A DNA stretch of 32,276 nt from Candidatus Altimarinota bacterium (lineage in GTDB: Bacteria; Patescibacteriota; Gracilibacteria; BD1-5; UBA2023), in contig CANBWW010000001.1 of the NCBI GenBank assembly GCA_947373235.1, positions 1 to 32,276 on the forward strand, given 5' to 3'. Position 1 is the first letter of the stretch; every line of letters starts with the position of its first letter. The position numbers and the translations under genes are program-made. The notes beneath the pieces were generated by a model. The model was not told the origin of the DNA. It saw only the letters and a program-made list of their open reading frames with translations, and did not search any database. This document shows, one piece after another, positions 1 through 32,276 of this stretch.

Positions 1-45
1 AATCACCTCTTCAGAGCTCTCATCTCGATATATTTTCAAGCTTTC

Positions 46-3000: not shown

Positions 3001-6000
3001 AAATCTTACTTTGATGCTTCTCAGCTTACTTATTCTCTTCCGAGAACGGTGATGCAAAAATCTGACTCCGTTTCTGTGAGTTTTGACTTTCAAAAAAATG
3101 GCGCTCATATCGACCTTCCAGAAAATACGAATGTAAAACTCGATATCATTTCTCTTACCGATACAGACGGAAAAAATATTTCTCTCGATAAATCGGATAA
3201 TCTTCTCCAAATTGCACCAGCAAGTCAGCCATATGGATCTGAAAAAACGACATTTCTCCTTACTTCTGGATGACAACTCTGAAGTGTAAAAATAAGATGA
3301 ACGCTGACGACTGCACTTCCAGATGGAACGACATACACAAGTTTTTCAGATGATATCGTCATAAGAATCAGCGATGAGTATCTCGATGTATCTCCGACCG
3401 TACAAGGCATAGAAGCAAGCTCCATCGATACAACCCTCCTTGATCCAGTGAAACTTTCGTTGACTGCAAAAAGCAATCAAAATAATGCCTCTATATCATC
3501 AGTACTTCCATATACACTCGATATCTATGATGATATTTCTGATGAATTACTTGCTTCAGATATTCAGATACATTCTTCCACTGACTATAGCATTCCAATT
3601 GATTATACCAAAAAAATCTGACTCTATAGATTTGAGATTCATGACCAAGCTTGAAGATTTGGGGAGGCGACTCTGGCAGTTCGTTCATGACCATTGGCAA
3701 AATCCAACTTCTTACCACTTTCAGACACGATTGTAAAAAATATTGATTCATACGGTGCGATCGATCTTCTCGATGCAAAAGATAATCTTCTTACACCAGA
3801 GCTTCATACCATCGAATTCGAAGCGCAAGGATGATATCTTGTCGATAGTGATGGAAAACATGTTCAAAAAATGTCGATACAAAGTATAGATAGTGAAATT
3901 CCCCTTGCTTTCGGTGCTGATGCTGCCTGAAAAATAAATATTTCTTATTCGATCGATGGAGTTGTGACGGCTTCTCGCCAGATCGACGTCGTTAATATAG
4001 CAAAAATAAAAATCAATCGTCGTTGAACTCCTGTGGTTGGTGGTCCGGCGGTTTCTATTTTTGCTGAAGTAGTTGATGAAAATGATCAGCTTCTTTCAGG
4101 ATTCCATTCTTCGATTTCATTTTCTCTTCCGACACTCGCGGGTTCTTTTGCTACTGGAACGGTTGCTATAGAAAATGGTAAAACAGATGATTTTTCATTT
4201 CTTCCTGGTCGTGTTGCTGGCCAACAGATGCTTTCTATATATGTTCCTGGAATCGGAACTATCCCAGATGTTCCGTTTTCTATTTCTCCCTGAGCGCCAT
4301 TTTTTATACAGTCAGCTCTCGGCGATGACTTTACGACTTTTAGTGTCGAAGACCGATATGGCAATCTTGTGCCAAAGGATTTTGTAGGAACTTTGCAGAA
4401 AGATGTTGATCCATCTCTACCGATAAACTTTACTGCGGGTATTTATAGTACACCAAGAACTCCTGGATATTTTACTGCGACCGTTCCAGAAATAGCCAAT
4501 TCGAGTATTTCATATACTGATACTGATGGAGTTCATACGATTTCTGGTATTCCAAGTACACCGATTTTTGTTCCTACACCGAAACAGAAATTTGTATTCC
4601 GTCCTGATTACAATGCACGATATACGGTTTTTGCTGGAGATAGTTTTTTAAGAGAATCAGAAAATATCCTCTATGACACAACTCCTGGAGCTTCTCAAAG
4701 TCTCGCCGCAAGTACACTTCTCACTTCACCATACCAGACAGAAAATTATTTTTCTATCTTTCCTGGAGGTGGATATAGCCTCTGAAATGCTTCGGATATA
4801 CTCATGAAGGCAAGTGCTCATCTGGAAAAAAATACATTGATTTTGGAAGCTTCTGACAGTGTGAGCCATACGCGTATTGCTCGTGTTTCCTATCCAACGA
4901 GTGGACTTCTTTCGAGTGTGTGTGAAGAAAGTTCGACAGACTCTCAAGATTGTCTGACCGTTCCTTCATGAGGAGGTATCAGATTTATTACGTATAAAGA
5001 TGGGCAATATCAGACTCAAAATGATGGAAATATCATGACGATCGCTCAGTCTGGAAATATCAAACTTCGTTATGATAGATCTGCATGACTCGTCCTCGCT
5101 GCTGGTATCACACTTTCTCCTGTTTCTGCAGATTCCAGTGCGGGACTTCTTCTTGATGTGATAGATGGAGACAAGTCGATCGGTCGTATATTTCTTGCAA
5201 CTGATCCAAAACTCTGAGTACAAAAATCAGCTGATATATTTCTTCCAGCTTCGACTCCTGTTCTTGAGTCTACTCATCCATATTTGGAAAAACCAGTCTA
5301 TTCACAGATTTTTGATTCCCAAAATGCTGGCTATAGTATCTATACCAAACCAAAAACATCGGATCTAGATGAGACGATGATCGGACCAAATTTTATAGAT
5401 TCTCTCGGTTCTATAACGGATACTGCTGGTGTCGGATGGCATGATAAAAATCGTATGATGCTTTCTTATAGCGCTGGCGATACCGTGGGTGAAGCAACCA
5501 AATGGTTTCAGACGTATACGATGGTCAATCTCTGAGATCCAGTCGCCCATGTAGACGTATGAGCGGTTGGTACAAATCAAGAAGGGATCGATCGATCGAT
5601 CGGTACGGAACTTGCTTCTGGTGCACGTGGAAATATTGTTTCTGTTGCCCATCATGATATGAACAATGATGGCTATGAAGATGTGATCATAACCTATGAT
5701 GATGGTTTTGTGGAACTCTATCTCAATCTGAATGGTCGTTTTAAAAAAAGTCAGATGATCGGATATGTACCAAATATTTCTCCTGATCAACTTTCTTTTT
5801 GAGATTTCACAGGAGATGGTTTTTCCGATATTATCGGACTCAATGATTCGGGATGACTCCTCTTCATCGATAATAGTGATAGAAAATTTGTCCAAAAACC
5901 AATTTCTCTCGATGATTCCTCCGCTTCCATTCCAGATCATATCACTCAGTATAAGATCTACGATATGGACGGAGATAAAAAGGAAGATATTGTTTATCTG

Positions 6001-9000
6001 ACTGAAGCTTGAGAACTCTGAGTTCTTTATGGAACACAGACGGCATGAGTTTTTTCGAAACATATAGCGGACTCGAGTTTATGAGTTTCACTTTCACCTG
6101 ATGCAGAAACTGGATGAGGAGTTTTTCATGCAAATACAGTACCAAACACTGTTCCACAGAGTACCGATCCAGAAAATGATACGAGCCTCATTCAGGCAGA
6201 TGTCTACTATCATCGAACACTTCCGAGTCCTTCGAGTGATTCGACAGTGACCTATTCACAAAATGATTCAATCGATACTATTACCAATCTTTCTCCATCA
6301 AGTCCACAAAATGCGACTACTTCCAATTTTGTGTATTCAGAATATGCACCTGCTTTTGGTCTCGATATACAAAAAACATATAACAATATTTCTGCTGCAA
6401 AACTCCATGCAGGGGATCTTATACAAGTGGATATCGCACTGAAAAATACAACCACGAGTACACTGTCACAGATAGAATATCTAGATACGATTCCCAAGAT
6501 TTTTGATCCGAAAGATACAAAAAAATATCAACTCATTATCGATAATGAAGCAACAGAGAAAAACTTTGTTCCACTCACGAGTGGTGATTTTGATGCTGAC
6601 TTTATAGGAATGGATATTCCTGCAGGAAAAACCCTCCATATCCGATATACTCTGAAGGCACTTCCTACGACTTATGGAGAGATGCAGGTGGGAAATCTCC
6701 AAAAATGACAAGTATGAGAAGATGGATATTGAGATATTTGATTCAATGCTTCTACGACCTGCGGAACGAGTATGATGCTTTGGAAATCTACGTCTGGACG
6801 TACTTTTTCGAAGGGAAGTGCTGATTTTTCTCAGCCGATAGTTCCTACGAGTATCCAAAATCAGATCGATCAAACCAATGGTGAAATCGCGGGTGCCCAG
6901 CATCTTTCGAGTACGAGTTCTACACTCTGAGCATTGACGAGTGACTACAATAATATGTCTGAATCAAATGGTTCTGTATCGGCCCCGTTTCAGGCAAATG
7001 TACAACAAAGTGGTCAAAATTATGTAGCATCACTCGATCCAAGTCCTGCATTTACTCAAAAAGTAACGACCATGGCTCAAAATATTGCAGATTGACTTTC
7101 TTGTGGATTTGGTGGGGGGTCATGCATGTCTTTTCCTATGAACTGGGCACCACTCGCACCAGGAAGTGATCCGGTTCTTTTTGGGAAACCTGTCGGAGAT
7201 GGTCTCAAAGTAGGCGAGGGTATTCCTCTTTTTAGTGGATTAACCGGATATCCTTTGCAAGTTGGTCCTGTCTGTGTCCCGATTCCAGTCGTGTGGCCTG
7301 CATCACCTTTGGCATGGCCAGCCCAAACATGCCCAACTTCAAACTATGAAGCTGGATGGGCAGAAGTCGGGTCGATCTTGGCATCAGGATGACATCAGCC
7401 AGCTTCACCACTTTTAGGTGCCGGTTGAATGTTCGGTATATCGAGTCCAACTAATTTTCTCAGAATTTTTGTAAGCCCAACACTGACCCTTGGAGTTTGA
7501 ACTGCTATCTGTATGGGTCCAGCAAATATATGATGACAATTTCCACCGAAATGACTTTCACCATTTATTCCATGAGGAAACTGTATCGTTCTGGCAAAGC
7601 CGATGAATGTCTGTAAGGGTGATGGTTCAAGTGCTGATGGAGATGTTCAAGGGGTTTCATGACTGTGAAGCGTGACAGATGCATGGAATGCAGGAAGTTG
7701 TAGTATAAAAGCAGATACTTCTACGGATATCGCAACCACCAATAAACAAACAACACAAGATATTATCTCCTATTTACAAAACCCAGATACCAAGAAAGTA
7801 AATGATATCTATGCTTCTCTGGCAAAGAGAGGTCCTCGAAATCTCTCTTCAGGATGACCACTTCTGAGTATGGGTGATAATAGTTCCTGAACGAAGATCG
7901 ATGTAGATATCGATACGACGAAACCCTTCGATATGCATAATATCGTGAAGGTCAATAATACTCGTATTCCAGGTTTTCCTGATTTTATTATGGATTGGGT
8001 CGCACGTCAGACGGATGAGATTACGAATAAGCTCATGACTCCACCGAATATTGTCGTTATTCCGCCAAGAAATTTTAGTCAATATGGAACTTCGGATAAG
8101 AGTTTTTCAAATTTTTCTGATGCATTTAGTCAAAAAGCATATGTCGATGCGTATGCGAATTTCCAACAAAAACTCTGACAAGCGGGAAATACTGATGTTG
8201 CTTCCAAGCTCACAAATATGACCACTTCTCATAGTGATCTTTCTGCTGGGTATGAGAAGGCACTGGATGGATTTATCCAAAATCATGCTTCTGCCTTAAA
8301 TAGTGCAAAAGGTGGAGTAAATCAAGCAAATGCGGTCTTCCAATTTCTTGGTCAACTTCCATTTCTGAAGGTACAAAAAACGCAAGTCGCGATCAATGTT
8401 CCGTGGATTCTTCCCCAAGAACTCGATCGATATGCTCGTACTTTATCTCAATATTCAGCTGAACTTGATAGAACTGAAAAGCAGTGGTGTGCAGGAAAAA
8501 CTGCTGCCCAATGTACCGATATTCATGCGAATGCCAATGTTTCTGCACTGCGTACAAGTATCCAGAAAAATTTGGCGATGATCGAGACGTATAAACATTT
8601 CCCTGATAAACTCCAAAAATATCTCACTTGGAAACAACGATACATTGCTGAAATCATGTGTAACGTGAACGCTTTCGAACAGATGATCGGAGGATGGTAC
8701 AACGATAACGGTATCCGATTTCGTAAATGGGCCGAGTTCTATGTGCTCGTCAAGACAGTGATGGAAAGTTGGCAACCAGTGATTGATATATTCAAAAAAT
8801 GAGATGCTCAGTGTTCTGTCTGTCGAAATGAACGATGAGATCTAAAATACTATAAGATCAAACTTATCAGTATACTTATACCGACCCTTCCGATTATCCA
8901 ATTTCCGAGATGGCCAGATATTGTCCTCGATCTTTCTGATATTCGTATGTGACTCACGATCGCCGTACCAGAATTTAACTTTCGTATCAATCCGATCCGT

Positions 9001-12000
9001 CTTCCAAATCTTCCGCTCTTAAATCTTCCTGCACTTCCATCGATTGGTCTTTCATTGCCACCACTCCCGATCCTTCCAGCGATTCCAAATCTCCCAGATT
9101 TACCAGATCTTCCATCATTTCCTCGTGTACAACTTCCATCGCTTCCACCACCACCAAAACTTCCAAAAATATTTGGTTCTCTTTCAGCATCTCTCTGACT
9201 CCTACAACTTTTCCAGAAAATCCGTTGCTATATGGAGAAAACGATTCTCGTCCCAGAGTGGCAAGCTGGATCAGTGATCGCTGATAGAACAGAACGACAG
9301 GGGACATTGAATCTCGATTTTCTCAAAGTACAACTTCCACAGTATGCTGTACCAACTATCCGAGAAATCCGAGTTTCTACACATATTGACTTCGAAAAGA
9401 GGACAGATTTTATTACTGAATTCGCACAAAAAGCGGTGAAACCAATAAACTCATTTAGTGCGGATATACAGGGAAGTGTCCAAAGTTCTCTTGATAAAGC
9501 TGGGCAAGATGTCCAAAATGTTGGAGCTGGAATACAAAATGGAATCGATAATGCAACGAAGGATCTCAAAAATATAAATCTCAAAGTCGATGCCAATGGA
9601 AAAGTCATCCAATCTTCACTCGATGAATCGAATGAGGATTTTGATCAAAAGACTTTTTCAGGGTTGATCGCTTCACTCACATCTGAGAAAGATACACTTC
9701 TGGATACAGATGATTTTACAGATGATTTATTGAAAGAAATGCAACATGCTTGAGAAGATACCACCGTTTTGAAAAATTCTCTTCAAAAATCTAAAATAGA
9801 AAGTGACGAGATAACGAAGTGAATGGAGAAAAATTTCCATGAAAATATGCAGCTTTTCTATAAATATCTCAATGCGGAAACAGCTGATACGAAGGAACAA
9901 GAAAAAATGATCGAACGACTCAAGTGAGATATCCCAACACCACTCGTAGATGCCGATTTACCACGTGCGCATTTTGTTTCTGATGAAAGTAGTCTTTCTG
10001 ACGGAGCTCTTGATGATTATAATTCAGCTATTTTAAAAAATCAGAATACAGCTCAGATTTCTGTCTCATCAGGTAATTCGAATATTCAGGCTACAGAACA
10101 TCTTCAGTGAAAATTGGGTCGCCTTCTCGCTGCCAATACTCTCTCTACGCCCACAACAACCCCATCTGATACGAGCTATGCCCCTTTGTATACAGGTATT
10201 TATGTACTTACACCGAGCGGAGTTCAGACAAAATTATTTGATTATACAGATATTCTTGATCCAGCTGAGAAGCCACAAGTTTTTGATTTTGATAAAGATG
10301 GTGACGCTGATTACCTCTATATTCTTGGATGAGTTGTCTATGTAAAATATTCTTCCTTACATACACCAAAGAAAACTATTGATACCGATATAAGTTTTAG
10401 TGATCTCGATATTTCTGCTCGTCCACAGGCTCCAAATTTCTTTGATGAAACAATCTCAAGTCCAGGGAATATACAACTCTCTTTCACTCCTGCTGACGAG
10501 AGAGATCGTGATTTTCGCCTCGAATTTTTCGATCGATATACTCAATGGGATCTTGCTACTCTCAATGAATGAAAGCCAGATCTGAATGCACCAAAATCAA
10601 CGGTTGATTTTTTTGTAGAAGATCCCGGTGATACACAAAAATCCGATGGATTAGAAGTGACAGCGATTCCTGAAGTTCTCCAATCAGTCGATCATCCAAG
10701 TGGATTTATCCTCCAAGGTATGAGTGGTGTTCCGCTGAAATCTGGTACCAACTTCACACTCACCGCTGGAAGACCAATCTATACTGGAAATACTGCAGTC
10801 CGTTTGACTTATACTCTCAGTTCAGGTGTTTCTCAGTCTCTCGATATGAAAAAATATCAAAAATATGTCTTTACAGGAGATATTTCTGCTTCGATCGTTT
10901 CAGGAAAAGCATATATTTTAACACAAAGTAGCTCTGATCGTTTGGTGTATTCTGATGATTTTATCGGTATGCCGATCCTTCCAGGTACACATATCATCAA
11001 CACGGACTGATGATTTACTCTCTATAATCCAAGTCTTGATCGTTCAACGGATATTTCTACAAACGAAGAATACAGAAGTGTGTGACTCTGAGTACCTGAT
11101 GAAAGTTACCAAGTAAACTTTCCATACATGAATGGTTTGTATAGTGGAAAACTCACCGCACTTTCTCCAAGAAATCATGATCCTGTCTCTGCAGGAGTGA
11201 CACTCTTAGCACCGCTCGCTGCTCTTGATAACAGTGCTCCAGTTGTCGATATCGCTTCAAAAATCCAGATTCCGGTATATGGAAAAATGGATTTTGATTT
11301 GAAAGATATTATTTCTGATATGAGTCCGACTCATGTTTCTATTGATCCTGATACGACCGTCGATGAAGATAAGAACTGAGTGTATGATGATGATTTTGTA
11401 AGTGCATGAACTGGTGTTAAAATCAATTCAGGTAGTATTGTCTTTGGTCCTTTCGATAATCTTGGAATACATATGATGAATCTGAATGCAGTCGATGCCT
11501 ATGGAAACCAAAATCTCGTTCCTTTAGAGGTTGATGTATTTGCTCCGATTCCACAGATTAAAAATATCGATACGAATGGTATCATTCATTGATTGATTGA
11601 TCCGATTACTACACTGGAACCGATTCATTTTTTCAGAATTCGTACCGGAAGTCCATTGAAACAATTATTTCCTTCGAGTACTCTTACAAAAAATGATGGA
11701 ACTTTCGAGACAGGAAGCGTGTTTATTGGAAGCGGTGTAGATCTCACTTTTGGTGGAACTTCTCATATATTGGACCAAAATTCCTGACTTCCATCGACTG
11801 GAGATAATCTCAAATTCACTGTTGCATCCGCGACAAAAGATCATCCAATGATTTTTACTATTCATGATTCATCTGGAACTTCTATCCTTGATCAGACGAT
11901 TTCTCTTCCCGAAAATACTCGATTCATGCTCAATCCAACAACGACTGATATACCAAAAGTTCCAAGTGTCGTGATCAATTCTTCTCAAGGATATCTTTCA

Positions 12001-12237
12001 CAATCAGCAAATCTTCTCGATAAGAATATTCCATGAGGTGTCTATATCACCGATAATTCCTACAATCCTATTGCCACGATTGCACAAGATGGACAGATAT
12101 ATGCAATTGTTTCTTGAGTAACTCTTTCCGCAAAAAAATATGGTGAATTTCTTTCGACCAGTATTCTTTTGAACTGAAAAGAAATCACAAATGTGAAATA
12201 TCTGGTGAATTTCTTTTATACTGTCAATAATCACTAA
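46..12237 (+). CDS. Giant secreted/surface multidomain protein (4063 aa when TGA=Gly); likely adhesin or host-interaction protein, overall function unknown
   Basis: Frame +1 has no TAA/TAG from position 1 to the TAA at 12235-12237 but carries about 74 in-frame TGA (manual codon scan). All 20 track ORFs from 385..618 to 11848..12036 lie in this one frame. The ATG at 46 is followed by a signal-peptide-like MQFRFYQKYTSAILIFLLFLTQTVQVSFF. Recognisable pieces: FG-GAP/VCBS-like Ca-binding repeats (DMNNDGYEDVII, GDFTGDGFSDII, YDMDGDKKEDIVY at ~5560-6060; FDFDKDGDADYLY at ~10280-10320), Ig-like (Big-type) segments at ~4030-4400, a DUF11/CARDB-like segment at ~6390-6700, and a Leu-Pro repeat at 8992-9165. 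The frame is open to the left edge, so an upstream start cannot be excluded. Confidence 0.85.
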
Positions 12238-12353: not shown

Positions 12354-13886
12354 ATGTTTCCACGTGTTACTATCGTCGGTCGTCCAAATGTCGGAAAATC
12401 TAGTATTTTCAATGCTATGTCTGGTCATCGTATCGCCATTGTTTCTGATATCGAGAATACTACTCGTGATCTTATAGAGTACAAAATTACTGATACAGAA
12501 CGGGATATTTCGTATATTTTGGTTGATTCTGGAGGTATTGTTGAGGCGGATAATGAAACACTTCTTGCTGATGTTCGTGGTCGTGTAGATGACGCGATCG
12601 AGTCTTCGGATATTATCCTTTTTGTTCTGGATTATGATCGAGTGACGGAGTTCGATGATCATATCGCTCGCAAACTCAGAAAATCTGGAAAAAAAGTAAT
12701 CGTCGTTGCAAACAAAGCTGACAATCCAAAAAGAGCCATGGAAGCCTACGAGCTTATGAGTCTTGGTCTTGGTATCGTTGTACCAGTGAGTGCTATGCAA
12801 TCTCGTGGCTTTATCGAACTTCAAGATGCGATCGTCGCAGAGCTTCGTACTCTCGATCTTGCTGTTCCAGCCGATATTGCTGGAGAGAATCCTGATATGT
12901 TGAAATTGGCGATCATTGGTCGTCCAAATGTCGGAAAATCTTCTCTGGTAAATGCGATCTCTGGAGAGATACGTACGATCGTGAAGGATATGCCCGGAAC
13001 GACTCGTGATGCAATCGATACGATTATTTCTCATAATAATGAGGATATCTGTCTGATCGATACAGCAGGTATACGCCGTGCCGGGAAGATCGGATCTGCA
13101 AATATAGAACAGTGGAGCGTGATGCGAGCAGAAAGATCCATCGAACGAGCTGATGTGGTGGCAGTCGTGATGGATGCATTCGAAGGAGTTGCCCATCAGG
13201 ATGAGCATATCGTCGGTGAAGCTAAAAAAGAAAAGAAGGGAATTATCCTCGTGTTAAATAAATGGGATAAAGTCCTAGCAAAGCCAGACGTTGATAAAGA
13301 TACTATTCTTGAACGATATATGCACTATCTTTCGAAGAAGTTTGATTTTCTTTCATATGCTCCCGTCGTCTTTACTTCTGCGATCGAAGGTCGTCGTATT
13401 GATCTCATCCTCGATCATGCACAAAGTATCCAAAAAGAACGCAATAAACGTGTAAAAACATGAGTATTTAACAAGTTTCTTGATCAGATTACCTATGATC
13501 ATGCACCAAGTGGAAACCGAAAATCTCATAAGCCAAAAGTGTATTACGGTTCTCAGGTTGATGTGAATCCTCCTCGCTTTGTGATTTCTGTGAACAACTC
13601 CGATCATTTCCACTTCTCCTATGTCCGCTATATAGAGAATAAGATTCGCGAAGTTTTCGGATTCGAAGGAACTCCGATCGATATAGAAATGCGTTCACGC
13701 AAGAGTATCTATAAGAATAAAGATAAAGATATCATGAAGGTCGAGTCTGGAAAAGAAGAAGGAGATGAGAAATATGAACACAATATGGAAATGGTCGAAA
13801 AACGGAAGGAAGATACCAAGAAAAATATGAACAAAAAGAAGTTTAATAATTATGCGAAACGAGATGACAAAAGAAAACGTAATTAA
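12354..13886 (+). CDS. der: GTPase Der/EngA (double GTP-binding domain plus KH-like domain) with a Lys/Glu-rich C-terminal tail
   Basis: Two GRPNVGKS P-loops (MFPRVTIVGRPNVGKSS and KLAIIGRPNVGKSS), DSGG/DTAG and NKAD/NKWD motifs. Track ORFs 12354..13463 and 13539..13886 are in one frame, joined through TGA at 13461-13463 (KRVKT-G-VFNKFLDQI...PKVYYGSQVDVNPPRFVISVN..FEGTPIDIEMRSRK). Stop is TAA. Confidence 0.95.
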
Positions 13887-14880
13887 AATCCAATCTTCAG
13901 GGTCATCATTTCTTTCAAGAAGATTTTTGATCATTTCTGCAATTTTGACAGGAGTATGATTTTTCCTACAGTACTTCACTTCAGGATTTTTGAGCCTTCT
14001 GGTAGCATTTTTCCAGATCACTCTTTTATCCATTTTTGTTGTGAGTTTTCGATTTCTTTTTTCTCGAAAAATACCGTTTCGATTCCTGTTTTTTCGTTCT
14101 GCACTGTTGTTTGGAAGTATTGCTTGATTTTTTTCTGCACTGATCCTCCTCTTTTCTTTCTATCAAAATAGTTTTCCAGGAGCAGTTTCAAAAATCACAC
14201 TTTCTGATGGTGATCGTACGATTGTTTTTATACAGATGTCGCATATTGCCATACCTGATTTCTATGAAAAAATCCATACGGATCTTCTGAGTTTGAGTCA
14301 TTCTTGATATCTCATATATGCCGAATGAGTCCGTCCAGGAAATGAAGAAAATACTCAGAAATTCCAAAATCTTCTCGGAATTAAGCTTACAGAAAATACC
14401 TATACCAAAATAGCCGATACCATCGGTATGCAATCACAAGGGAAAGAAATTTTTTCATGAATTTCAACGGGAAGTATTAAGAATGTAGATATTTCTATAG
14501 ACGATATCATGAAAATGGTATGAACTGGGTCTATTCGTCCACAAAATCCTCCACTCGATATTGAAACCGAACTTGAGGCTCTTCCTGATGGAAAAATTCC
14601 TCCACTTTCTCAGTACATTATCCGTGCAGTTTTGAATATGATGATCAAAACTAATGCTGATACGGATACATTTCTTGGAAATATGATCGACCCAAATCTT
14701 TTTGAAACGATTCTTGGAAAAAGAAATCAATATATCACAGATACGTTTCTCCACTCAGATGATAAAAACGTTGTATTTTTGTATGGATCGCTCCATTTCT
14801 CTGGTATTTATAGCATCTTACAGGCAGAGAATCCAAATTGGAAGATCATCTCTATAGCACCATATTATCCATATAAATAA
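13864..14880 (+). CDS. Membrane-anchored protein, possibly Tiki/TraB/GumN superfamily (338 aa)
   Basis: Frame +1 is open from 13687 to the TAA at 14878-14880, with 6 in-frame TGA. About three N-terminal hydrophobic helices (FLIISAILTGVGFFLQYF, GFLSLLVAFFQITLLSIFVV, ALLFGSIAGFFSALILLFSF). The soluble domain has TraB/GumN-like landmarks: IVFIQMSHIA, YAEGV, FLYGSLHFSG. Start is ATG 13864 (alternative ATG 13852) and overlaps the der 3' end. The family assignment is weak. Confidence 0.6.
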
Positions 14881-14997: not shown

Positions 14998-16977
<1,980 letters not shown>

Positions 16978-17083: not shown

Positions 17084-17668
17084 ATGCACTCCTTTCGTTT
17101 TTGAAATTCGGGTTTTACTCTTTTTGAGATGATGATAGTTATAGCTATCATTGGTATTATGTATACTTTTACGCTTGGTTTTACTGAAAATCCATCCATT
17201 TATAGGGAAAAATCTATCCGCCTTCAGAGTTATATAGAGGATGAACTCAAGTGAGCGCGCACAAGTACTATGATCGGAAAGTGACCAAAAGACGCGAGTA
17301 ACAATATATTATTAGTTCAAAGACGTGATGTTCTCATATCCACTGGGAATGTACAGACGATATATTCCTGAGCGACGAATACTGGAACTGAACGACAAAT
17401 AAAATCCCCTTTTTTTGATGGAGATGCCAAGTATAAGCTTAATAAGTTTTATGGCACATGTGTTCTAGGTAATACTACTTTTTCCTGAGTGACACAAGCA
17501 AAAATCACGTACGAACAAACAAAAGATATCCAGATTATCACTGTTCCAACAGTGTGTATAGCATCGGCTGATTCGATTCGAAAGATTACTTTCGAATCCC
17601 AGTATCAAAATTATACAGGTTCGGTTACTCTCGATCGTATTTCTGGGATTATTTCTACAGATAATTAG
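17084..17668 (+). CDS. Type IV pilin / pseudopilin-like protein with prepilin N-terminal cleavage-methylation motif (194 aa)
   Basis: MHSFRFGNSG|FTLFEMMIVIAIIGIM: class III signal with Gly at -1 (17111-17113), Phe +1, Glu +5 (17126-17128) and a hydrophobic helix. Two C-terminal Cys (GTCVLG..., TVPTVCIAS) are compatible with a pilin disulfide loop. Six in-frame TGA; stop is TAG at 17666-17668. Confidence 0.85.
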
Positions 17669-18742: not shown

Positions 18743-18769
18743 TTGTTTTTTCCACGGAAAGAGTATAAT
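18743..18769 (+). promoter_or_regulatory. Weak promoter candidate for the alpha-2-macroglobulin gene
   Basis: TTGTTT (18743-18748), 15-nt spacer, TATAAT (18764-18769), 26 nt upstream of ATG 18796. Confidence 0.3.
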
Positions 18770-18795
18770 TTTTCTATCTTTTCTTTTCCTTTTTT

Positions 18796-21700
18796 ATGCG
18801 AAATATCAATCGTATTTTCCTTTCTTTTTTCGCTTTCTTTTTTGTTGCGACTCTCTGATATTATGCGTATCTTTTGTCTTTTTGAACCCTTTCATTTGCA
18901 TTCTTTTGAACCGAACATCAAGAGTGAAATCTCCTTCAAATTATTCCTGAAAAATCTGATTTTTTTATAAAGTCCAATTCTAAAATTATTGATCCTGACG
19001 CAATAAAATCTTCTCTTTTTTTCTGAACTCAAGCTCTCCTTACTAATCCTACACTTTCTGGAGAATATAAAGTATCTGTTTCTGGAGAGCTCGTATCTGT
19101 TTCTATGGATCTCAAAAAATGAGAGGTACTTACACTCTCAGCGAAAGCATATAATAAAAATAAAAAAACCTCTGTACAACTTTCCCAGGATATCACACTT
19201 TCTGAACCTATTTCTCGTTATCCAAAAAATCTTCAGTTTCAGCGTATTTGAGAACCAAGAGATCAAACATACAGAGTTGATATGTATGGTTATGATAATA
19301 TTACTCCTGAAGATATCAGGTATTATGCACACTATAAAGTTGGTCAAAGTTGTACTATTCAGGATTCTTGGCAATACATGCTTCCCATAAAGATGCACCC
19401 AATTTCACCAATTCGGAAAATTGGTCAAATTTCTGAAATGGATTTTACTCTGGATTATGATATTTCGGAAGCACATATGTGCCTCATAGGTGGATTTGCT
19501 GGAAATATTTCTCCACTTGAAGATCGTACGATCGTTCCCTTTGTGATCACGGGATCGACTCTGCAGGTTCTTTCTCCAGAAATCGATATGAAAACCCAGT
19601 TGGAGTTTCGTTTTTCATCTCCCATATATTCTGATACTGGCGTACTTTATAGTTCAGAATATATATCCAATCGAGAACAAGCGAAGATAGATTTTTTAAA
19701 ACATCTTGATGTTAATTCTGATATCAAGATCCTTCCTGAAGATATTGTTCTTGCTCCTGATCGTGCCACGATCACACTTCCACTCGAAGAAGGGAAGGAT
19801 TATCATTTTACTCTTCGCGATCTTGAGGATATTTATGGAAGAAAAGCAAGTCAAGAATATTATATTACTCCTCAGAAAGAACCATTTCTTTCGCTGCGTT
19901 TTTCGAGTGATCGCAGTATATATGCAAAGGGTGAAAAAATTCCAGTCAAGCTTTACGCACTTTCCACTCCGAAAAATAGCTATAGCCTCAAATTGTGTCA
20001 GGTTTCACTCGATCCGTATAGCCGTCTTGAGCGTATTGTCGATGAATCTGATCTCAAATATAGAGATTCAGTTTATAATATTTTAAATTCCAAAACGGAT
20101 GCGTTTGGATGTGTAAAAAAAGACATTGTCTTATCAGGAAGTGGATATATTTCACCTTTTGATGTTACTGATCTCATGAACAACCAATCTCTCAAAACCG
20201 GTTTATACGTGCTCTATTTTCGAGATCAAAATGATACCGCTTCTTTTCCTCGATTTATCAAACCTCTTGTTTTTTCTGTTGTTGATACACACCTCACTAT
20301 GAAGGTCGATGCGAGTGGAAATATGCTTATACTGGCGACAGATTTACTCACAGGAAAACCTCTTGTTGGACAGGAAATAACGGCGATGAGAAATATTTCT
20401 CGTACGTATATCGATAAATATGATCAAAATACACAAACCTCCACAAAAGAATATTTACCTCTTTCTGCTCAACGTTTCGCAACGGGAATTGTTTTATGAA
20501 AAACAGATTCTGGTGGATTTCTCGAAATGCATCTTGATTCCTTAAAGAATATAGAAGGGTATGATGATACTCCTTATGGATTATCTTTTGAGAATTGGTG
20601 GGAATATGAGGGGCGTTATGATAGTTTTCTCGTAAAATCTCAGTCATCTGATCGCATGGGTCTGGTCGTCAGCACATGGAATGATGGAATTACAGGATTT
20701 AATTTTTGACTGAAAGAGTCAGATTATTCTTATCAAAATCGTCCCAATTATACATCTTTTCTCAATACTGATCGAAAACTCTATCTTCCATGAGAAACCG
20801 TTCATCTTCATGCGATTGTCAGAAAACAAGGAAAATCTGGAATGATGGTTCCTAGTGATACGCCATTTATACTTTCTGTGACTGATTCTCTCTGAAAAGA
20901 AGTGAAGCATGTTCTTTTAAAAACGAATACGTATGGATCCCTTGGAGCCGATTTTATACTTCCTTCCGATACGAGTCTTGGTTCTTATAATGTCTCTCTT
21001 TCACTTGCTGATAGCACCGAATATATAGAAAATTCGAATACCTATTTTCAGGTAGAAATTTTTAAAAATCCGACGTTTACTCCCAAAGTAAGTCTGAAAT
21101 CGAATGATATAGAAAATGATACAATAAAAGTACTCAAAAAAACTGAAAATACAGATCCAAATTTTCCATGGTACAGTGATTTATATACTGGGGATTTTGG
21201 AGTCGATGGTATCGTCCAGTCTTTTTATTACAATGGATCGCAAATGAAAAATATTCCATTTACGTATCGCATATATCGAAGTGAACATTATAGTGATGAC
21301 TATTTTTCTGATTGTTTCTGGGGTTGTTATTATGAAGCTCCACTCGAATTTTACACAGAATGAACCTGACAGATCGATGCTGATGGGTATGGTATTTTTC
21401 ATGTGCCGATTCACTATACTTCTTACTATAGTGATTATAACTATACTGCAGAAATCACGATCCGAGATCCAGCTACTGGTGAAGAAGTGACGACACCGTC
21501 GAGCCTTCTTGTGAAACTTCCTCTTGCATATAAGACATTTACCCCAGAAAATCCACTTATTTTTACTCCGAATAAAAAAATCCTCAATCCAAATGAAGAT
21601 TTTTCTGGAACATTTTCTCCTACTTATGGAAAATGGGATGCAAGTATAGCTTGAAAATATCACTATCAAATCCTCCATAGATCCTATGAAGAAACCATGG

Positions 21701-24609
21701 TCGATGATATACGTGCCGGGTCTGTCCGAGTAACCAATCCAGTTGATATGATTGTGGAAAGTGGTTCCGTCGAGCGTACAGATTTTTCGACTCGATTCAA
21801 TAACTATCCCCCTTGAGAATATCATTTTATAGTGACACCTGTTATGGATGGTAAGGTGCCTGAAGAAATGATTTCTGATACACTTTTTTATATTTCTGGC
21901 GATACTTCTTCTTTGAAAGATTCGAAACTTCGAGTTATTCCCGATAAAACTATATATCAACCAGGAGAAACCGCTCATGTCATGATTCAACTTCCATTTA
22001 CAGGATCATATTTATTGATTACGGAAGAAAAATGAGGCATTCTCAAAAAAGAATACACCTATGTTACAGGAAATACACTTATGCGAGATATTGTCGTCGA
22101 TGATAGTCTTCTTCCAAATGCATATATAGGTGTGGTAGCATTACATCCGTCTCTCTGAAGTATACTTGATACCAATCGAAGTTATGCTGTTTGATATGGG
22201 GAAATTATTTCTGATATATCTTCTAAGAAATCTATCGTTACCATAAAAACTGATAAAGAAACCTATAAAAATAGGGAACACGTACAAATGGATCTTTCAC
22301 TGACTGATAAAGGAGGAAAACCTCTTCAATGAGAGATCACTGTGATGGTTGTAGATGAAAGTCTGATACGTCTTTTAGGAAATATTGATCTCGACATCAT
22401 ACCAAAATTTTTCCAGAAATTTCCATTTACGATGAAAACATCACTTTCAGATATTGGTATCGAAAGAAATAGATACCTCTCACGAAAATGATCCAATGGC
22501 GGAAGTGGTGATAAATGAGGATGAGGAATACAGATAGCATCACGAACGATTTTTAAAAATACTGCTTACTACAATCCAAGTGTTATTACCGATCCTTCTG
22601 GAAATGCAAAGATTGGATTCGATCTTCCTGATAATGTTACTGATTATCGTATCATTGCGATTTCGAATACACTCGATTCTCATTTTTGAGCTGGAGAAAA
22701 AACTATACAAGTTCGAAAAGATTATGTCGTCGAAGCACATGCTCCCACGATCGTTCGACAGGGTGATACTTTCACCATTTCTACAAATGCCTTTAACAGC
22801 ACTAAGAAAATAACGGGAGCGAATTTGATTATCAAAATCGGTACCGGATCCAGCATGATACAAAAACAGTCATCTATTATACTTAATCCACTTCAGTGAA
22901 CTGGTTCAGATTTTCTTTTTTCTGTTCTTCCTTCTTGGACAGGTTCTCTTTCCTATACTGCCGAATTAAGAGATGGAAATATGGTTTTGGATAGTGTGAC
23001 TCAAAACTTGAAAATCGCACCGATCCCGCTCATAGAAAACACTTTTCGGTCTGTTCATGTTTTTACTGGAACTTCTTTGACGATATGACTTCCGCCGCCT
23101 GAAAAAAGTACTGATCTCGATTTCTCGAAAGTTGGATTAGAGTTTTCTCTCTTTCGTGCGAGTGAATTAAGCAATTCTTTTAACTCGCTTCTTTCATACC
23201 CCTACGGTTGTATCGAACAGACGATAGCGGCAACTCTTCCAAATCTTTTTGCACTCAATTTTGCCGATACCTTACATCTTCCGATTGATCGAAATGAGGC
23301 GATCAAGAATCGTGATGCGTGATTGCAAAAAATCCTTCGCATGCAAGATCCAAGTGGTGGATGGTTGTATTGGGAGGGAAATACAGAACCAGATATTCAT
23401 ATCACTCCATATGTATTGCGCTCACTCCTTGTATTGAGAGATCTTGGAATATCCGTTCCTCAGTCAGTGATCGATCAATGAATAAGCTATATTATCACGA
23501 ACCAATCTTCATATGAAGCTGATCAAAATCTCTTTGCTGAATCTGTATGGACACTTGCATCTTTTGCTCAACCATGAACGAAAGATTGGTGGAATCGCAT
23601 AGATCCAACAAAGCTCGATCGGCATGGATATCTCGCATATGTATATACTGCACATATCCTCAAACTTGATACATCTTTGCTCGATAAAAAACTTGCTGAA
23701 AGTATGAAAAATACTCCAAAGAGTGAAGATTACTGGTATTGGGATCGTGATGCTGATTTTGCTATCTATGCTCGTCTCCTTATGGATCAATGAGAGGATT
23801 CCAGGGCTCAAGAAATCATTACCGATATTCTTTCTCGAGTGGATATGAGTTCATATTATGTATCTACACAGACAAAAATTCAGATTTTTCTGTCACTTGC
23901 TCGAGATATTAGAAATCAAAAAATGAATTTTTCACCGTTTTCCGTCGCTCTGCGATGAGACGGTATTATCACAGATGCTCATTTTTCCCTCCAAAATCCT
24001 CTTGCAAATATAGAAACTCTGAGATCAAAACTCTGACTTTCTTTTCAACTGACTCGTGATCCAAATGATCACCCACTATTCATCACAATGAATATAAAAG
24101 ATCGTCCAAAAGATATTTTTCAGATGCAAGGAGTCAGTGCTGGATGAATGAATCTCAAGAGAAGTTTCGAACTGATTGATGAATCTCGATGAATTGATTC
24201 TGATGGACATTTTATCGTTTCAAAGCCAGTAGATGATATGATTTTTCATCGATGACAACTCTATCGAGTCACTTTAGAATTAGATTTTGATACAGACATT
24301 CCATATTATGAAATGACTATGGAAGACTTTTTTCCTGGTTGATGGAGACCGATTGATAGTATTCTTCGTACTGAGAGTAGCTTTCATAGTGAAAGTGCAC
24401 CATGAACTTATTGGGATCATGTCGAGTCACAGGATGATCGTCTTCTTGCAAATATGTCATATGGATATGGTAAAAAACAAATTTATAGTTATTATATACG
24501 TCCGGAAAGTGTTTGAGAATATTTACTTCCACCAGCAACTGCCTATCTTATGTATCGACCCAGTGTTCATAGTTATACACAGTACGAAAAAGTAAAGGTT
24601 GTAGAATAA
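18796..24609 (+). CDS. Bacterial alpha-2-macroglobulin family thioester-containing protein, N-terminally membrane anchored (1937 aa)
   Basis: Frame +1 is free of TAA/TAG from ATG 18796 to the TAA at 24607-24609, with about 37 in-frame TGA; track ORFs 19282, 20527, 20902, 21403 and 21832 are all in this frame. Thioester motif LLSYPYGCIEQTIAATLPN (CIEQ at 23209-23220). A2M C-terminal receptor-domain-like end MEDFFPGGWRPIDS...WDHVESQDDRLLAN...YSYYIRPESVGEYLLPPATAYLMYRP. The N-terminus MRNINRIFLSFFAFFFVATLGYYAYLLSF is hydrophobic and has no lipobox Cys. Confidence 0.9.
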
Positions 24610-24782: not shown

Positions 24783-24811
24783 TCTATTTCCTCACTTCAT
24801 TTGAATTATGA
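24783..24811 (+). repeat. Direct repeat copy 2 (29 nt), containing the nrdR start codon
   Basis: tctatttcctcacttcatttgaattatga. Its ATG (24808) is the nrdR start. Confidence 0.7.
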
Positions 24812-25254
24812 AATGCCCAAAATGTAAAAATCTTGATACGAAAGTAATCGATTCTCGAAGCACCGAAGACGGAAAGGCTATCCGAAGAAGGCGAGAGTGT
24901 GAAAAATGTGGCGCACGTTTTACGAGTTTTGAACGTCTCGAATTCGTATCATTTCTCGTCGTGAAATCTTCATGAGAAAGTGAGCCTTATGACCGAACGA
25001 AGGTACAAAGTTCTATGCTCAAAGCACTTACGAAACGTGCTTTTATTCCAGAAAAACTCGAAGATGCGATCAATGGACTCGAAAATGAATGGGCACAAAA
25101 TAAGCAGGGAATTACATCGAAACGTATCGGAAGAGATATACTGAGAAAACTGCGTGATCTTGATGAAGTAGCATTTCTCCGATATGCATCTATCTACCAT
25201 AATCATGACAGTGTAAAGTGATTTGTGAAATTCATCGAAGATGAGCTCGGATAA
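24808..25254 (+). CDS. nrdR: Transcriptional repressor NrdR (zinc ribbon plus ATP-cone, 148 aa)
   Basis: [45 protein letters not shown] (CxxC...CxxC ribbon), then ATP-cone VVKSS-G(TGA 24973-24975)[10 protein letters not shown]...[29 protein letters not shown]. Reads through a second TGA at 25219-25221; stop is TAA at 25252-25254. Confidence 0.93.
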
Positions 25255-26248
25255 TATGCAAAAAACTCAAGAACACACTTTTCCTACTATAGAAATAGTA
25301 CCACTTGGTACTGCTTTTCTTCGAGCTCCACTTCTTTCAGATCAACTGATAACTCATATACAGGAACGTATTTCGAAACAAGAAAAAGTTCTTATTTTTT
25401 ATAATCGTCGTGGCTCTGGACGAGCTTTTATATGCCAAGATTGCGGTTATTTTCCGAGGTGTCCTCATTGTGATATTGCCCTTTCTCACCATACCAGTCC
25501 GAAAAATATTCTTCTGTGTCACCATTGCAACTATATAGAAAATCATAGTCTTCTGTGTCCGAATTGCCAAGGAAGTCGATTTCAGAGTATTGGTATCGGT
25601 ATACAAAAAATCGAACAGGATTTGTCCTGATTTTTCCCAAATGTATTGATGACTCGCATTGATTCTGATATCGAGATGAAGAAAAAAGAACTCCTTCAAA
25701 AAGTACAGAGTTCTGATATTGTTCTTTCTACCTATTCGAATATTGCCTTTATTCATCAAGATATCGCTGAAGTCATTTTTCTGCTCTTTGAGTCAGATCT
25801 GACCCTTCCAGATTATCGTATCGAAGAAGAAAGCTACCATACGATCGACTATATAAAAAAATCAGAAAAATCTATACTGATACAAACCTATACTCCTGAT
25901 CATCCACTTTTGCATATCATTTCCGAGGGAAATTATAAGGATTTTCTCGGTTATATAACTCCTGAAAGAAAGAAATTTTTATATCCACCGTATGCACAGT
26001 TTGCACTTTTGCGTATCCATGATATAAGTAAAGATCGTCTTACGAATATCATCGAAAAAATAGTAAACAAGATCGAAATTCTCAAAAAAGATTCCACTTT
26101 TCTCGCATATGATCGTGATATATGGGAACGATATCGTGGTGAATGGGTTCAGAAAATAATTCTCAAAGATATCGATCTTTCTTATATACTCATAGAACTG
26201 GAAGTTGAGATCGTAAAAAATAGAGCCGTAACACTCGAATATCGATAA
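25241..26248 (+). CDS. priA: PriA-like protein: C-terminal part only (helicase lobe 2 remnant, Cys-rich zinc region, C-terminal domain; 335 aa)
   Basis: KVLIFYNRRGSGRAFICQDCGYFPRCPHCDIALSHHTSPKNILLCHHCNYIENHSLLCPNCQGSRFQSIGIGIQKIEQDLS-G-FFP...RIDSD...ILIQTYTPDHPLL...YPPY aligns with the PriA C-terminal half. All four CxxC pairs are present. An in-frame TAA at 25214-25216 blocks any upstream extension, so Walker A/B (lobe 1), the winged helix and the 3'-DNA-binding domain are absent. Overlaps nrdR by 14 nt. Confidence 0.8.
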
Positions 26249-29711: not shown

Positions 29712-31610
29712 ATGAAACAGACTCCTGAAAACATCCAAAATATCCTTACCAATCTCCCTCTTACACCCGGAGTATATCAGATGAAAGATGCTTCCGGAAA
29801 GGTCATCTACGTCGGAAAAGCAAAGAACCTCAGAAGTCGAGTGAAGTCGTATTTTGATCGAACGGTGGATCTGAGTGCTGCGAAAAAACAAATGGTTGAG
29901 AAAATCAGAGATATCGAAACGATCCTCTGTCAAACCGAAGTCGAAGCACTCGTTCTCGAAACCAATCTTATCAAACACCTCACACCGAAATACAATATCC
30001 TCATGAAGGATGATAAAAATCTCGCGTATATAAAAATCACTCCATGACCTATTGCGATGGTACAAAAAACCAGACAGAGAATTCCTGACGGAGGAGAATA
30101 TTATGGTCCGTATGTGAGTGCTGTCGAACAATGTGTACGATATCTCAGAAAGGTTTTTCGTGTGCGAAATTGTCGGGTACGTTTTGGAAGAGCTGATGGA
30201 AATTTTTTTGTATCCGATAAAGCAGGGAAAACGATTCCATGTATGGATTATTATATAGGACTCTGTCCTGCTCCGTGTCTTCTGACCCCAGATGCTCTTT
30301 CGAAACATGAGCAAAATATTTTGTCGCTCAAAAATTTCCTCGACGGAAATACGACTCAAGTTTTCTCTGATCTCGATAGAAAAATGCGGGAACATGCGAA
30401 AAGCCTCGAGTTTGAAGATGCGGCAAATATAAAAACACTTATCGAATCTCTGAAAGTCCTTTCTGAAAGACAATCGGTACGAGATATTGCGACGGAAAGC
30501 ACAGATATTATCGTTTATTATGCGAAATATGATCGTCAGTTTATTGGTCTCACGATGATCCGACGTGGACAGATTGTCGGTGTATTTCGTCATGAAGCCC
30601 AGGCGAAGATCGATTTCACTGAGAGTGAAGTGATCGAACACTTCATCGCAGAACAATATCGTGATGAGAGTGATATTCCGAGTGTATTATTATTACAAAA
30701 GGAAAATGATGATTCTGTACTCTCTGCATTTCTCGAAGAAAAACGAGTTTCTCTGGAAGTTCCAAAAATAGGAAAGAAAAAAGAGTTGGTGGATTTTACA
30801 TTGAATCAAGTTCGTGAATATGCTTATAAGCTCGAACTTTCGAAGTTGGAAAACCGTATTTTGACTCGTGAACATATGGTGCACGTTCTGGAAAAAATCG
30901 GGTATTCAGTACCAAAAAAATGAGAAATCATCTTTGAGTGTTACGATATCTCTCATACGGATGGAAACTTTACGTATGCTTCTCGAGTGGTGATCGTAAA
31001 TGGAAAAGCAGATCCAAGTCGATATAAAAAATATAAGATCCAATCACTTCCAGAATGAAAAATAGATGACTTTGCATCTCATAGGGAAGTTATGATCAGG
31101 CGTACCCTTGAGGGTATAGAGATGAACAATTTTCCACATCTCATTATCATTGATGGATGAAAATGACAACTTTCTTCCGCACTCTCAGGAATAAAAGAAT
31201 GAATTTGGAAGTATCAAAATGATGTATCAAGATTATCATCCTGAGAGAGTCTGCCTATTTTATCTTCAGATATTCCACTCTGTTCCATTGCAAAAAGAGA
31301 AGAAGAGATATTTCTCCCATGAAAATCGGTTCCAGTCCTTTTCGAACATGGAACTCCTGAGCTTATGGTTCTTCAGAAAGCTCGTGATGAATCACATCGT
31401 TTCTCGATCACGGCCAATAGATCCGCTCGAACAAAAGCAATGAAAAAAAATATCCTCGAAGAACTTCCTGGTATCGGTCCAGTGACTCGCAAAAAACTTC
31501 TCAAACTCGCCGGATCTGTCGATGATATTCGAAATATTTCTCTCGCTGATCTAGAAAAGATATGTTCTGCGAGACAAATAGAAGCTCTCAAAGATCATGG
31601 AATTTATTAG
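29712..31610 (+). CDS. uvrC: Excinuclease ABC subunit C, UvrC (632 aa)
   Basis: GIY-YIG N-terminus (PGVYQMKDASGKVIYVGKAKNLRSRVKSYF), UvrBC-like region, endonuclease domain ECYDISHTDGNFTYASRVV, IIIDG-G-K-G-QLSSAL (TGA at 31158-60 and 31164-66 at the conserved DGGKGQ glycines), LQKARDESHRFSI, and C-terminal (HhH)2 LEELPGIGPVTRKKLL. Track ORFs 29712, 30057 and 31365 share one frame. Stop is TAG at 31608-31610. Confidence 0.95.
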
Positions 31611-32194
31611 GATTTTCTGTGTGCTAATCCTGATAAAAGGATTATCGTGAGAAATATGAGAAGTGCCATTCCTGGAATTGTCAGAAATCAAAATACAAAA
31701 ACTCAGTTATTATCGGTACATGCAGGAAGGAGTCCTCAAACCGTACAAGGAAGCTCGACGATCCTTCAGAGAACCCATCATTGGAAGTGATAATAGTAAT
31801 GATATCCAGCAAAAAATGACCCAAAAAGTGCAAGTATGAGTATGATAATATGATTTTTCCGAATTCCATAAAAAAGTGATATCAAAACGATCACGTCTAT
31901 CGGAAACATGAAAATCCTCTGCCACCAACAGAGTATACAAACTTCGAGCTCATAATAGAACTGATAAGTAAGGACTCATACGGTTGAACCTATTGCCAAA
32001 AAACCAATTATTCGCATACAATTTTCGTATGATAGAAATCTATCAATATGTTTTCTTGTTTTTCCTCCGAAAAGGATACCTATAGTGAGGATAAATGTGA
32101 GTAGAAAAACAGTAATACTTCCGATTCCTAAAATGATAGAGTATGTGTGGAGATTCATATTATGAGTTATAAATATTATGATGTTGTGCATCAT
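31607..32194 (-). CDS. dsbB: DsbB/BdbC-family disulfide bond formation protein (start uncertain: 195 aa from 32194, 136 aa from ATG 32017)
   Basis: Track ORF 31976..32194 continues through TGA: ...YYELEVCILCWWQRIFMFP (the CxxC-x2-QR signature of DsbB, CxxC at 31928-31939), further TM segments, and a second Cys pair PCTVGGLLPAC. Stop is TAA at 31607-31609. An extra hydrophobic N-terminal segment is present only if the start is at 32194 or 32158. Confidence 0.75.
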
Positions 32195-32276
32195 AATTCT
32201 TTCTTTGTAAAAAACAATTTTTTCACGAAATAATATTTTTCTATATAATCCTGATATGTATATTTTGGCCTTCGAA

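Follow-up and report, generated by a model that had tools for sequence, protein, structure and literature searches.

A thioester-type alpha-2-macroglobulin with a hydrophobic N-terminal segment in a code-25 Gracilibacteria genome

This study concerns a single gene, at positions 18796-24609 of a 32,276-nt stretch of contig CANBWW010000001.1 from Candidatus Altimarinota / Gracilibacteria; this whole stretch is hereafter called the window, and all coordinates are window positions. Our analysis leaves very little doubt that the gene encodes a complete thioester-type (Type I-like) bacterial alpha-2-macroglobulin (A2M). Moreover, based on sequence comparison and on structure models of orthologues, we consider it probable that the protein is a surface-tethered, single-use (suicide-substrate) protease trap of the type represented by ECAM, the YfhM protein of E. 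coli. In particular, the domain set, the predicted fold, the conservation of the thioester and of most of its lock, the homology of the bait, the pattern of cysteines and the pattern of the N-terminal anchor all point in this direction, as does, by analogy, the same role already proposed for the A2Ms of Vampirococcus and Gracilibacteria.

Reading frame, domains and predicted fold

The initial annotation of this DNA had proposed a 1937-aa A2M homologue, read under genetic code 25, and the gene is found exactly as described, as one open reading frame (ORF) whose product carries five Pfam domains.

18796..24609, + strand: A2M gene, a code-25 ORF of 1937 codons that ends in TAA and in which 37 in-frame TGA codons stand for Gly

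The stop-to-stop ORF spans 18769-24609 under translation tables 4 and 25, and its first ATG lies at 18796, giving the product of 1937 aa. Under table 11, the window, including the A2M region, splits into short ORF fragments. The reading of TGA can be followed in other genes as well: it encodes the first Gly of the Walker-A motif of FtsH (LLQgPPGTGKT; FtsH at 14998-16977) and two Gly of the UvrC motif DGgKgQ (UvrC at 29712-31610). In the A2M itself, the nine closest database homologues show G or W only at approximately 23 of the 37 TGA positions, the other positions being variable columns that also hold further residues. Such a G/W pattern is what would be expected if UGA codons of the homologues had been translated as Trp by a code-4 gene caller. 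Taken together, TGA at conserved glycines of FtsH and UvrC and the G/W columns in the A2M show that the genome uses code 25. Judging by these codons, UGA is read as glycine across the whole window, as in the code-25 lineage (Gracilibacteria/Absconditabacteria). In line with this expectation, the Trp content of the database orthologue entries P0001-P0009 is 2.4-4.2%, as compared to 0.9% in the code-25 translation of the window A2M. As a side remark, ORF lists made under table 11 are meaningless for the whole window. A search of the A2M protein against NCBIfam gave no match, scans of the window for tRNAs and Rfam families came back empty, and a promoter/terminator scan around the A2M gene gave a count below the shuffled expectation and was uninformative.

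The domains of the protein, including the bait-region domain (BRD) and the thioester domain (TED), are as follows.

18877..20757, + strand: N-terminal region, aa 28-654, predicted string of MG-like beta-sandwiches (model of orthologue P0001 and Foldseek)
20758..21054, + strand: MG2 domain, aa 655-753 (Pfam PF01835, E 6e-21)
21928..22371, + strand: BRD, aa 1045-1192 (Pfam PF07703, A2M_BRD, E 1e-14; aligns with ECAM)
22561..22809, + strand: A2M (MG) domain, aa 1256-1338 (Pfam PF00207, E 3e-15)
23161..23916, + strand: TED, all-helical, aa ~1456-1707 (Pfam TED_complement, orthologue model and Foldseek)
23938..24603, + strand: C-terminal MG domain (bMG10/CTMG), aa ~1715-1936 (Pfam PF17973, E 5e-16)

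All five Pfam matches (MG2, A2M_BRD, A2M, TED_complement and bMG10) lie above their gathering scores, and the domain order MG / BRD / TED / C-terminal MG matches the Type I bacterial A2M scaffold. The A2M C-terminal domain claimed in the initial annotation is the bMG10 match, which spans aa 1784-1922. The TED_complement match (aa 1459-1571, E 3e-11) is partial, covering profile positions 16-128 of 312, and Pfam gave no match on aa 1-647 even at E<=1. A phmmer search against PDB sequences aligned 530 residues, aa 1037-1566, both to YfhM/ECAM of E. coli (E 1.5e-23) and to the A2M of Salmonella (SaA2M).

For the fold, we relied on models of fragments of two orthologues from syntenic Gracilibacteria loci (P0002 and P0001, 54-56% identical to the window protein), whose sequences carry Trp where UGA was mistranslated. 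The P0002 model, made from the C-terminal half (56% identity to aa 1040-1937 of the window protein), has a predicted local distance difference test score (pLDDT) of 85.6 and a predicted template modelling score (pTM) of 0.70, and consists of beta-sandwich domains, one long low-confidence loop, a TED of 13 helices and a C-terminal beta domain. In a Foldseek search with this model, native ECAM (5a42) ranked first (E 1.5e-49, TMq 0.63), followed by native SaA2M (4u48; 0.62), while protease-activated ECAM scored lower than these native forms, at 0.39-0.44. What is more, the MG7-to-C-terminus part of native ECAM (4ziu) superposes on the model with TMt 0.79 and a root-mean-square deviation of 4.4 Å. 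The model of the N-terminal half of P0001 (pLDDT 78) gave SaA2M and ECAM as top Foldseek matches, with E ~1e-26 over ~830 columns; going by this model, the N-terminal region is a string of MG-like domains and no new module.

Thioester, lock and bait loop

The elements on which the chemistry of a Type I A2M depends can be placed in the window protein residue by residue.

22420..22545, + strand: bait loop, aa 1209-1250, FPFTMKTSLSDIGIERNRYLSRKGSNGGSGDKGGGGIQIASR (ECAM alignment and orthologue model)
23209..23220, + strand: thioester motif CIEQ, Cys1472...Gln1475, inside YPYGCIEQT (aa 1468-1476), aligned to ECAM
24424..24441, + strand: thioester-lock motif ESQDDR, aa 1877-1882 (alignment with ECAM-like proteins)
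24541..24555, + strand: thioester-lock motif AYLMY, aa 1916-1920 (alignment with ECAM-like proteins)

The thioester motif lies where the initial annotation had put it, at aa 1472-1475, and YPYGCIEQT aligns column for column (phmmer) with YPYGCLEQT of ECAM. For counts of conservation we used 34 full-length orthologues extracted under code 25, from species whose proteins are only ~45-50% identical overall; in 33 of these, YPYGC[IV]EQT stands at the same position. Could the motif nonetheless be a coincidence, the protein being a non-thioester adhesin built of MG domains? This outcome, with no TED fold present, had been named at the outset as one that would speak against an A2M, and it did not occur. 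While the partial Pfam match to the TED would sit well with a coincidental CIEQ, the exact alignment of the motif with that of ECAM, its retention in all orthologues save one, and the high-confidence, all-helical TED that superposes on native ECAM in the orthologue model make this alternative exceedingly improbable.

It has been described that tyrosines around CLEQ, together with the motifs RDDR and ExMY of the C-terminal MG domain, form a lock that shields the thioester and later binds the cleaved bait (Fyfe et al. 2015, PMC4498604). Among the Gracilibacteria orthologues, ES[QR][DE]DR is conserved, the YPYG context is invariant, and so is the Met-Tyr of ExMY, the Glu of which is replaced by Tyr (see below).

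Locating a bait region was among the checks proposed initially, and two lines of evidence meet on the same loop. Namely, Arg923-Leu942 of ECAM (RYGADIYDIYGQVIEGQGRL), which is disordered after elastase cleavage, aligns with PFTMKTSLSDIGIERNRYL of the window protein, and the only long loop with pLDDT<50 in the P0002 model corresponds to window aa 1216-1249. The bait is therefore placed at aa ~1209-1250.

Membrane tethering, cysteines and the proposed trap

Two features bear on where the protein resides.

18814..18876, + strand: N-terminal hydrophobic segment, aa 7-27, IFLSFFAFFFVATLGYYAYLL; putative signal anchor after the basic n-region MRNINR
21313..21327, + strand: invariant CFWGC motif, Cys840/Cys844, probable disulfide (invariant columns, in one of the most conserved 30-aa segments)

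The segment at aa 7-27 is the only one in the protein that resembles a transmembrane (TM) helix (Kyte-Doolittle 19-aa maximum of 1.74 at aa 9-27). All 30 orthologue N-termini compared share the same layout, in which M-[KR]xxx[RQ] is followed by ~17 hydrophobic residues, by LGYYAY and lastly by TLxFPFxGxExQ. As had been claimed, there is no lipobox, because the window protein has no Cys before residue 186; none of the 30 orthologue N-termini contains a Cys, so lipoboxes are likewise found in 0/30. The same earlier claim spoke of an uncleaved-looking hydrophobic N-terminus, of which the hydrophobic segment is directly observed, while its uncleaved state is what we infer from the length of the h-region and from the cleavage site. 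In particular, a hydrophobic run of ~21 residues and the lack of a conserved -1/-3 cleavage site favour an uncleaved type-II signal anchor. Hydrophobic N-termini of a non-lipoprotein kind also occur in further bacterial A2Ms of our homologue list. The database gene models P0001, P0005, P0007 and P0008 begin downstream of the hydrophobic segment, i.e., they are truncated N-terminally. As a separate observation, automated annotation of the orthologues adds spurious Trp at UGA and hides the N-terminal anchor.

The protein has exactly seven cysteines, all of them invariant: Cys186, 229, 401, 439, 840 and 844, plus the thioester Cys1472. The pairs 186/229 and 401/439 fall in the N-terminal region (aa 28-654). 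The six non-thioester cysteines are spaced like intradomain pairs, and this spacing suggests three disulfides and an extracytoplasmic protein. Given that every cysteine is invariant and that the window also encodes DsbB, formation of the three disulfides by extracytoplasmic oxidation is suggested.

If the protein is an ECAM-type trap, its working cycle might look as follows. After Sec export, the N-terminal hydrophobic helix would probably hold the protein on the outer face of the cytoplasmic membrane, replacing the lipid anchor of ECAM. There, the MG ring, the BRD, a CUB-like region, the TED and the C-terminal MG domain would take up the native conformation, with the Cys1472-Gln1475 thioester buried against the C-terminal MG domain. 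An attacking endopeptidase would cut the exposed bait loop, the cut would free the lock between the TED and the C-terminal MG domain, and the thioester, once exposed, would bond with a lysine of the protease and trap it covalently. In this way, surface proteins such as pili and giant adhesins could be protected from host or own proteases in a small, host-attached cell reported to be without an outer membrane.

That said, several observations weigh against such a trap. To begin with, one orthologue lacks the thioester Cys: L005 (JAYTYQ010000132.1, 1101-6926) reads YPYGSIEQM, and its bait is also divergent, with IEHNLWLTRK in place of otherwise invariant residues, which suggests relaxed constraint or a changed function in this lineage. 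Next, the Glu of the ExMY lock motif is replaced by Tyr (AYxMY) in the Gracilibacteria clade, Tyr1917 being invariant in the ten sequences of alignment A1, while diverse other bacterial A2Ms retain the Glu. The structure models, moreover, depict orthologues with their mistranslated Trp and not the window protein. The N-terminal segment may be cleaved by signal peptidase, as Ala or Gly precedes LGYYAY in 18 of the 30 orthologues. Finally, the bait is more conserved than would be expected of a broad-spectrum trap that meets many host proteases. The last two points lead to competing explanations, to which we turn now.

If the N-terminal segment were a cleaved Sec signal peptide, the mature protein would be released to the wall or the medium, or held non-covalently; this bears on localisation only. 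Many orthologues have V-[SG]-A, an AxA-like sequence, before LGYYAY, and this agrees with cleavage as well as the count of Ala and Gly at -1 does. On the other hand, L, I, F or T occupies this position in the remaining 12/30, including the window protein, which has Thr (V-A-T), and a hydrophobic run of ~21 residues corresponds in length to a TM helix instead of an h-region, and continues through the conserved LGYYAY. All in all, we hold cleavage to be fairly unlikely, though still worth keeping in mind.

As for the bait, it lies in the most conserved stretch of the whole protein, aa 1171-1260, where conservation is 0.80-0.89 as compared to a mean of 0.58. Within the clade of 34 orthologues the bait itself reaches 0.81, i.e., the 97th percentile, and many residues of the loop are both basic and invariant (ERNRFLSRKGS). 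As a control, the corresponding stretch of five further bacterial A2M clades from the homologue set was located by aligning them with the window protein and then measured. Hypervariable baits (0-1st percentile) characterise the two clades with a long bait, namely B, which has Bacteroidota-named members, and C, and in the three short-bait clades the bait lies at the 60th (A), 62nd (ECAM-like) and 88th (D) percentile. The idea that a conserved bait is unique to the Gracilibacteria clade was rejected, as clade D and the other short-bait clades are fairly conserved too; on these alignments, bait conservation in Gracilibacteria is notable, not unique.

One reading of this pattern keeps the trap but aims it at one conserved protease, be it the cell's own host-digesting secreted protease, against which the A2M would give self-protection, or a dedicated activating protease. 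The conservation of the bait across 34 species, set against its hypervariability in clades B and C, and the invariant basic residues of the loop speak for this. However, the average to high values in the short-bait clades indicate that structural constraint may suffice, and no protease gene is linked to the A2M in 41 related loci, described below. On balance, we regard a trap for one protease as unlikely. Doubtful to a greater degree is a proteolytically triggered covalent 'harpoon' or sensor, in which the invariant bait would answer to a single conserved protease, either of the host or of the epibiont itself, and its cleavage would free the thioester to bond the host envelope or that protease at the contact site. 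If true, this would be a complement-like step in CPR-host attachment or predation (CPR, candidate phyla radiation).

A related alternative is covalent tagging or adhesion in the manner of complement or TEP proteins, where an activated, tethered thioester would bond the host envelope and so aid epibiont attachment. The thioester is, after all, intact and under purifying selection, the protein is probably tethered to the surface in a lineage thought to be host-attached, with a giant surface protein and a pilin encoded in the same window, and the fold is common to C3 and TEP1. Yet the ECAM and SaA2M traps match far better than C3 or TEP in both structure and sequence, conservation covers the bait domain and C-terminal MG lock that are specific to traps, no finding points to host binding, and synteny is with housekeeping and not with adhesion genes. 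For these reasons we give adhesion only a slim chance, and a protease trap of the ECAM type continues to be our preferred reading.

Genomic context, distribution and relation to known systems

The other features of the window to which reference is made are given below.

1-12237, + strand: giant ORF of at least 4078 aa (code 25), cut at the 5' end of the window
13852-14880, + strand: ORF of 342 aa between Der and FtsH, with several N-terminal TM segments; weak TraB/PrgY/GumN match (E 0.0025, below cutoff)
14998-16977: FtsH, with the Walker-A motif
17084-17668, + strand: pilin-like ORF of 194 aa, with type IV prepilin motif GNSG/FTLFEMMIVIAIIG (Pfam N_methyl, E 2e-6)
24808-25254, + strand: NrdR, 148 aa, Zn-ribbon and ATP-cone; directly downstream of the A2M and kept there in nearly all Gracilibacteria loci
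25223-26248, + strand: PriA-like gene, ~341 aa, similar to PriA in the Cys-rich zinc-ribbon region only (E 1.3e-5, just short of the Pfam cutoff)
29712-31610: UvrC, with the motif DGgKgQ
31607-32275, - strand: DsbB

The gene order in the window is giant ORF, Der, TM protein, FtsH, pilin-like ORF, MutY-like gene (-), A2M, NrdR and PriA-like gene, followed by a major facilitator superfamily (MFS) transporter (-), two small ORFs, a DnaJ-like gene, UvrC and DsbB. The companions of the A2M listed in the initial annotation, namely the giant ORF, the pilin-like ORF (between FtsH and the MutY-like gene) and DsbB, are thus all present. The giant ORF has hydrophobic first residues and many Cys-rich and Gly-rich stretches. 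An ORF on the minus strand at 14026-14796, overlapping that at 13852-14880, is probably spurious. Likewise, the ORF at 24784-25278 (-) that overlaps NrdR was rejected as spurious even though it is the longer of the two, since synteny and Pfam support NrdR. The PriA-like ORF, in which no helicase core was detected, could represent either a minimal PriA or a degenerate one, and most related loci have a comparable ORF after NrdR.

Beyond the window, there are nine full-length database homologues at 42-54% identity, and a scan of species-representative genomes turned up relatives, 31-72% identical, at 41 loci. Nearly all of these loci are titled as metagenome-assembled genomes of Candidatus Gracilibacteria, a few as 'Peribacteria' or 'Patescibacteria group', and the closest is Gw_Eff_bin_120. 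To proteins outside the Gracilibacteria clade, identity reaches ~24% at best. A neighbour-joining tree built from 826 well-occupied columns of the C-terminal part, too rough to tell where the clade came from, unites the Gracilibacteria proteins in a single clade with a long stem, apart from the ECAM-like group (P0048, P0058, P0064) and from the other clades. The 41 loci extend up to 10 kb to each side of the A2M where the contig allowed, and the order MutY(-)/A2M(+)/NrdR(+)/PriA-like(+)/MFS(-) recurs in most of them, often with the giant ORF, Der and FtsH upstream; homologues of the giant ORF precede Der-FtsH-MutY-A2M in L007, L021, L031, L033, L034 and L038. Neither a mag-like operon nor a linked protease gene was found in these loci. 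In other words, the A2M is a vertically inherited core gene that lies among housekeeping genes and has no conserved functional partner.

The same loci bear on pbpC, the usual neighbour, which had been noted as missing here. No penicillin-binding protein (PBP) gene, be it transglycosylase or transpeptidase, lies in the window, and a GT51 motif scan of the 41 Gracilibacteria loci gave no pbpC adjacent to the A2M in any of them. With that, neither an adjacent pbpC nor a lipobox, whose appearance on reannotation had been named as a second outcome against the claim, was found. The only GT51 (class A PBP) motif in the 41 loci lies in L033 at 24829-25964 (+), ~9 kb downstream of the A2M and cut by the end of the locus, and at least some Gracilibacteria hence have a class A PBP that is unlinked to the A2M gene.

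How does the window protein compare with A2Ms that are already known? With ECAM/YfhM (5a42, 4ziq, 4rtd, 4ziu) and SaA2M (4u48) it shares the architecture of multiple MG domains, BRD, TED and C-terminal MG domain, the YPYGCxEQT motif, a homologously placed, disordered bait loop, lock motifs of the RDDR and xMY type, a predicted native-conformation fold and, as we would expect, tethering to the extracytoplasmic side of the cytoplasmic membrane. It differs from them in that it is only ~17-24% identical and ~300 residues longer, its N-terminal 650 aa match no Pfam bMG model, a hydrophobic N-terminal helix replaces the lipobox Cys, there is no adjacent pbpC (a trait of many, not all, Type I bacterial A2Ms), Tyr stands for the Glu of ExMY, and the bait is highly conserved within its clade. 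The hosts differ as well: instead of a diderm, we deal with a code-25 CPR bacterium, for a sister lineage of which, Vampirococcus lugosii, a Gram-positive-type wall has been reported (PMC8080830). The Type II A2Ms (P. aeruginosa MagD, E. coli YfaS) resemble the window protein in having an MG scaffold with a bait region and in their association with the inner membrane, but they are without CxEQ and are encoded in a six-gene mag operon (PMC5764988). Assignment to Type II, with its magABCDEF-type operon, was ruled out by the CxEQ of the window protein, and the neighbours are MutY-like, NrdR, PriA-like and MFS genes. Lastly, eukaryotic A2M, C3, TEP1 and CD109 are homologous in fold and share the thioester chemistry (Foldseek E 1e-35 to 1e-40), yet they are more distant than the bacterial A2Ms, and the C-terminal domain of the window protein matches bacterial MG10 and not a receptor-binding domain; no Pfam match for an anaphylatoxin, C345C or receptor-binding domain was found in the window protein.

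That these lineages have A2Ms, and that such proteins may be protective, had been published before, and the novelty implied by the initial annotation was overstated, also given the hydrophobic N-termini of other bacterial A2Ms. Namely, two large A2M-domain membrane proteins of the absconditabacterium Vampirococcus lugosii were interpreted as probably defending the cell against host proteases (Moreira et al. 2021, PMC8080830), and A2M homologues were reported from several Gracilibacteria orders as well as from Paceibacteria and WWE3 (Zhou et al. 2022, PMC9793634). By description, though not by sequence comparison, our protein is like Vampirococcus Vamp_6_203 and Vamp_19_245 and the CPR homologues, being of ~1900 aa, predicted in the membrane, composed of A2M domains and assigned the same proposed role. 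The available text of these two reports gives domain and BLAST matches only, and does not describe thioester conservation, type of anchor, bait conservation, lack of pbpC or synteny for these proteins. Reviews of bacterial A2Ms deal with Gram-negative bacteria, lipoprotein anchoring and linkage to pbpC, and a 2026 mBio paper citing Wong & Dessen makes no statement on A2M in its text. One orthologue, for its part, is already annotated by JGI as 'YfaS (alpha-2-macroglobulin family)'. Our contribution is consequently one of added detail, as follows: intact Type I machinery that is near-universal in the class, a probable helix anchor instead of a lipid anchor, no pbpC next to the gene, a conserved gene order and a conserved bait.

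If the trap function is true, thioester A2M traps would not be confined to the diderm periplasm. They would also belong to the core surface equipment that a recoded, host-dependent CPR class inherits vertically, with a helix as anchor and no PBP1c as partner, and the model of 'A2M plus PBP1c periplasmic repair' would be weakened as a general explanation. The invariant bait loop, for its part, provides a concrete peptide with which the relevant protease may be found.

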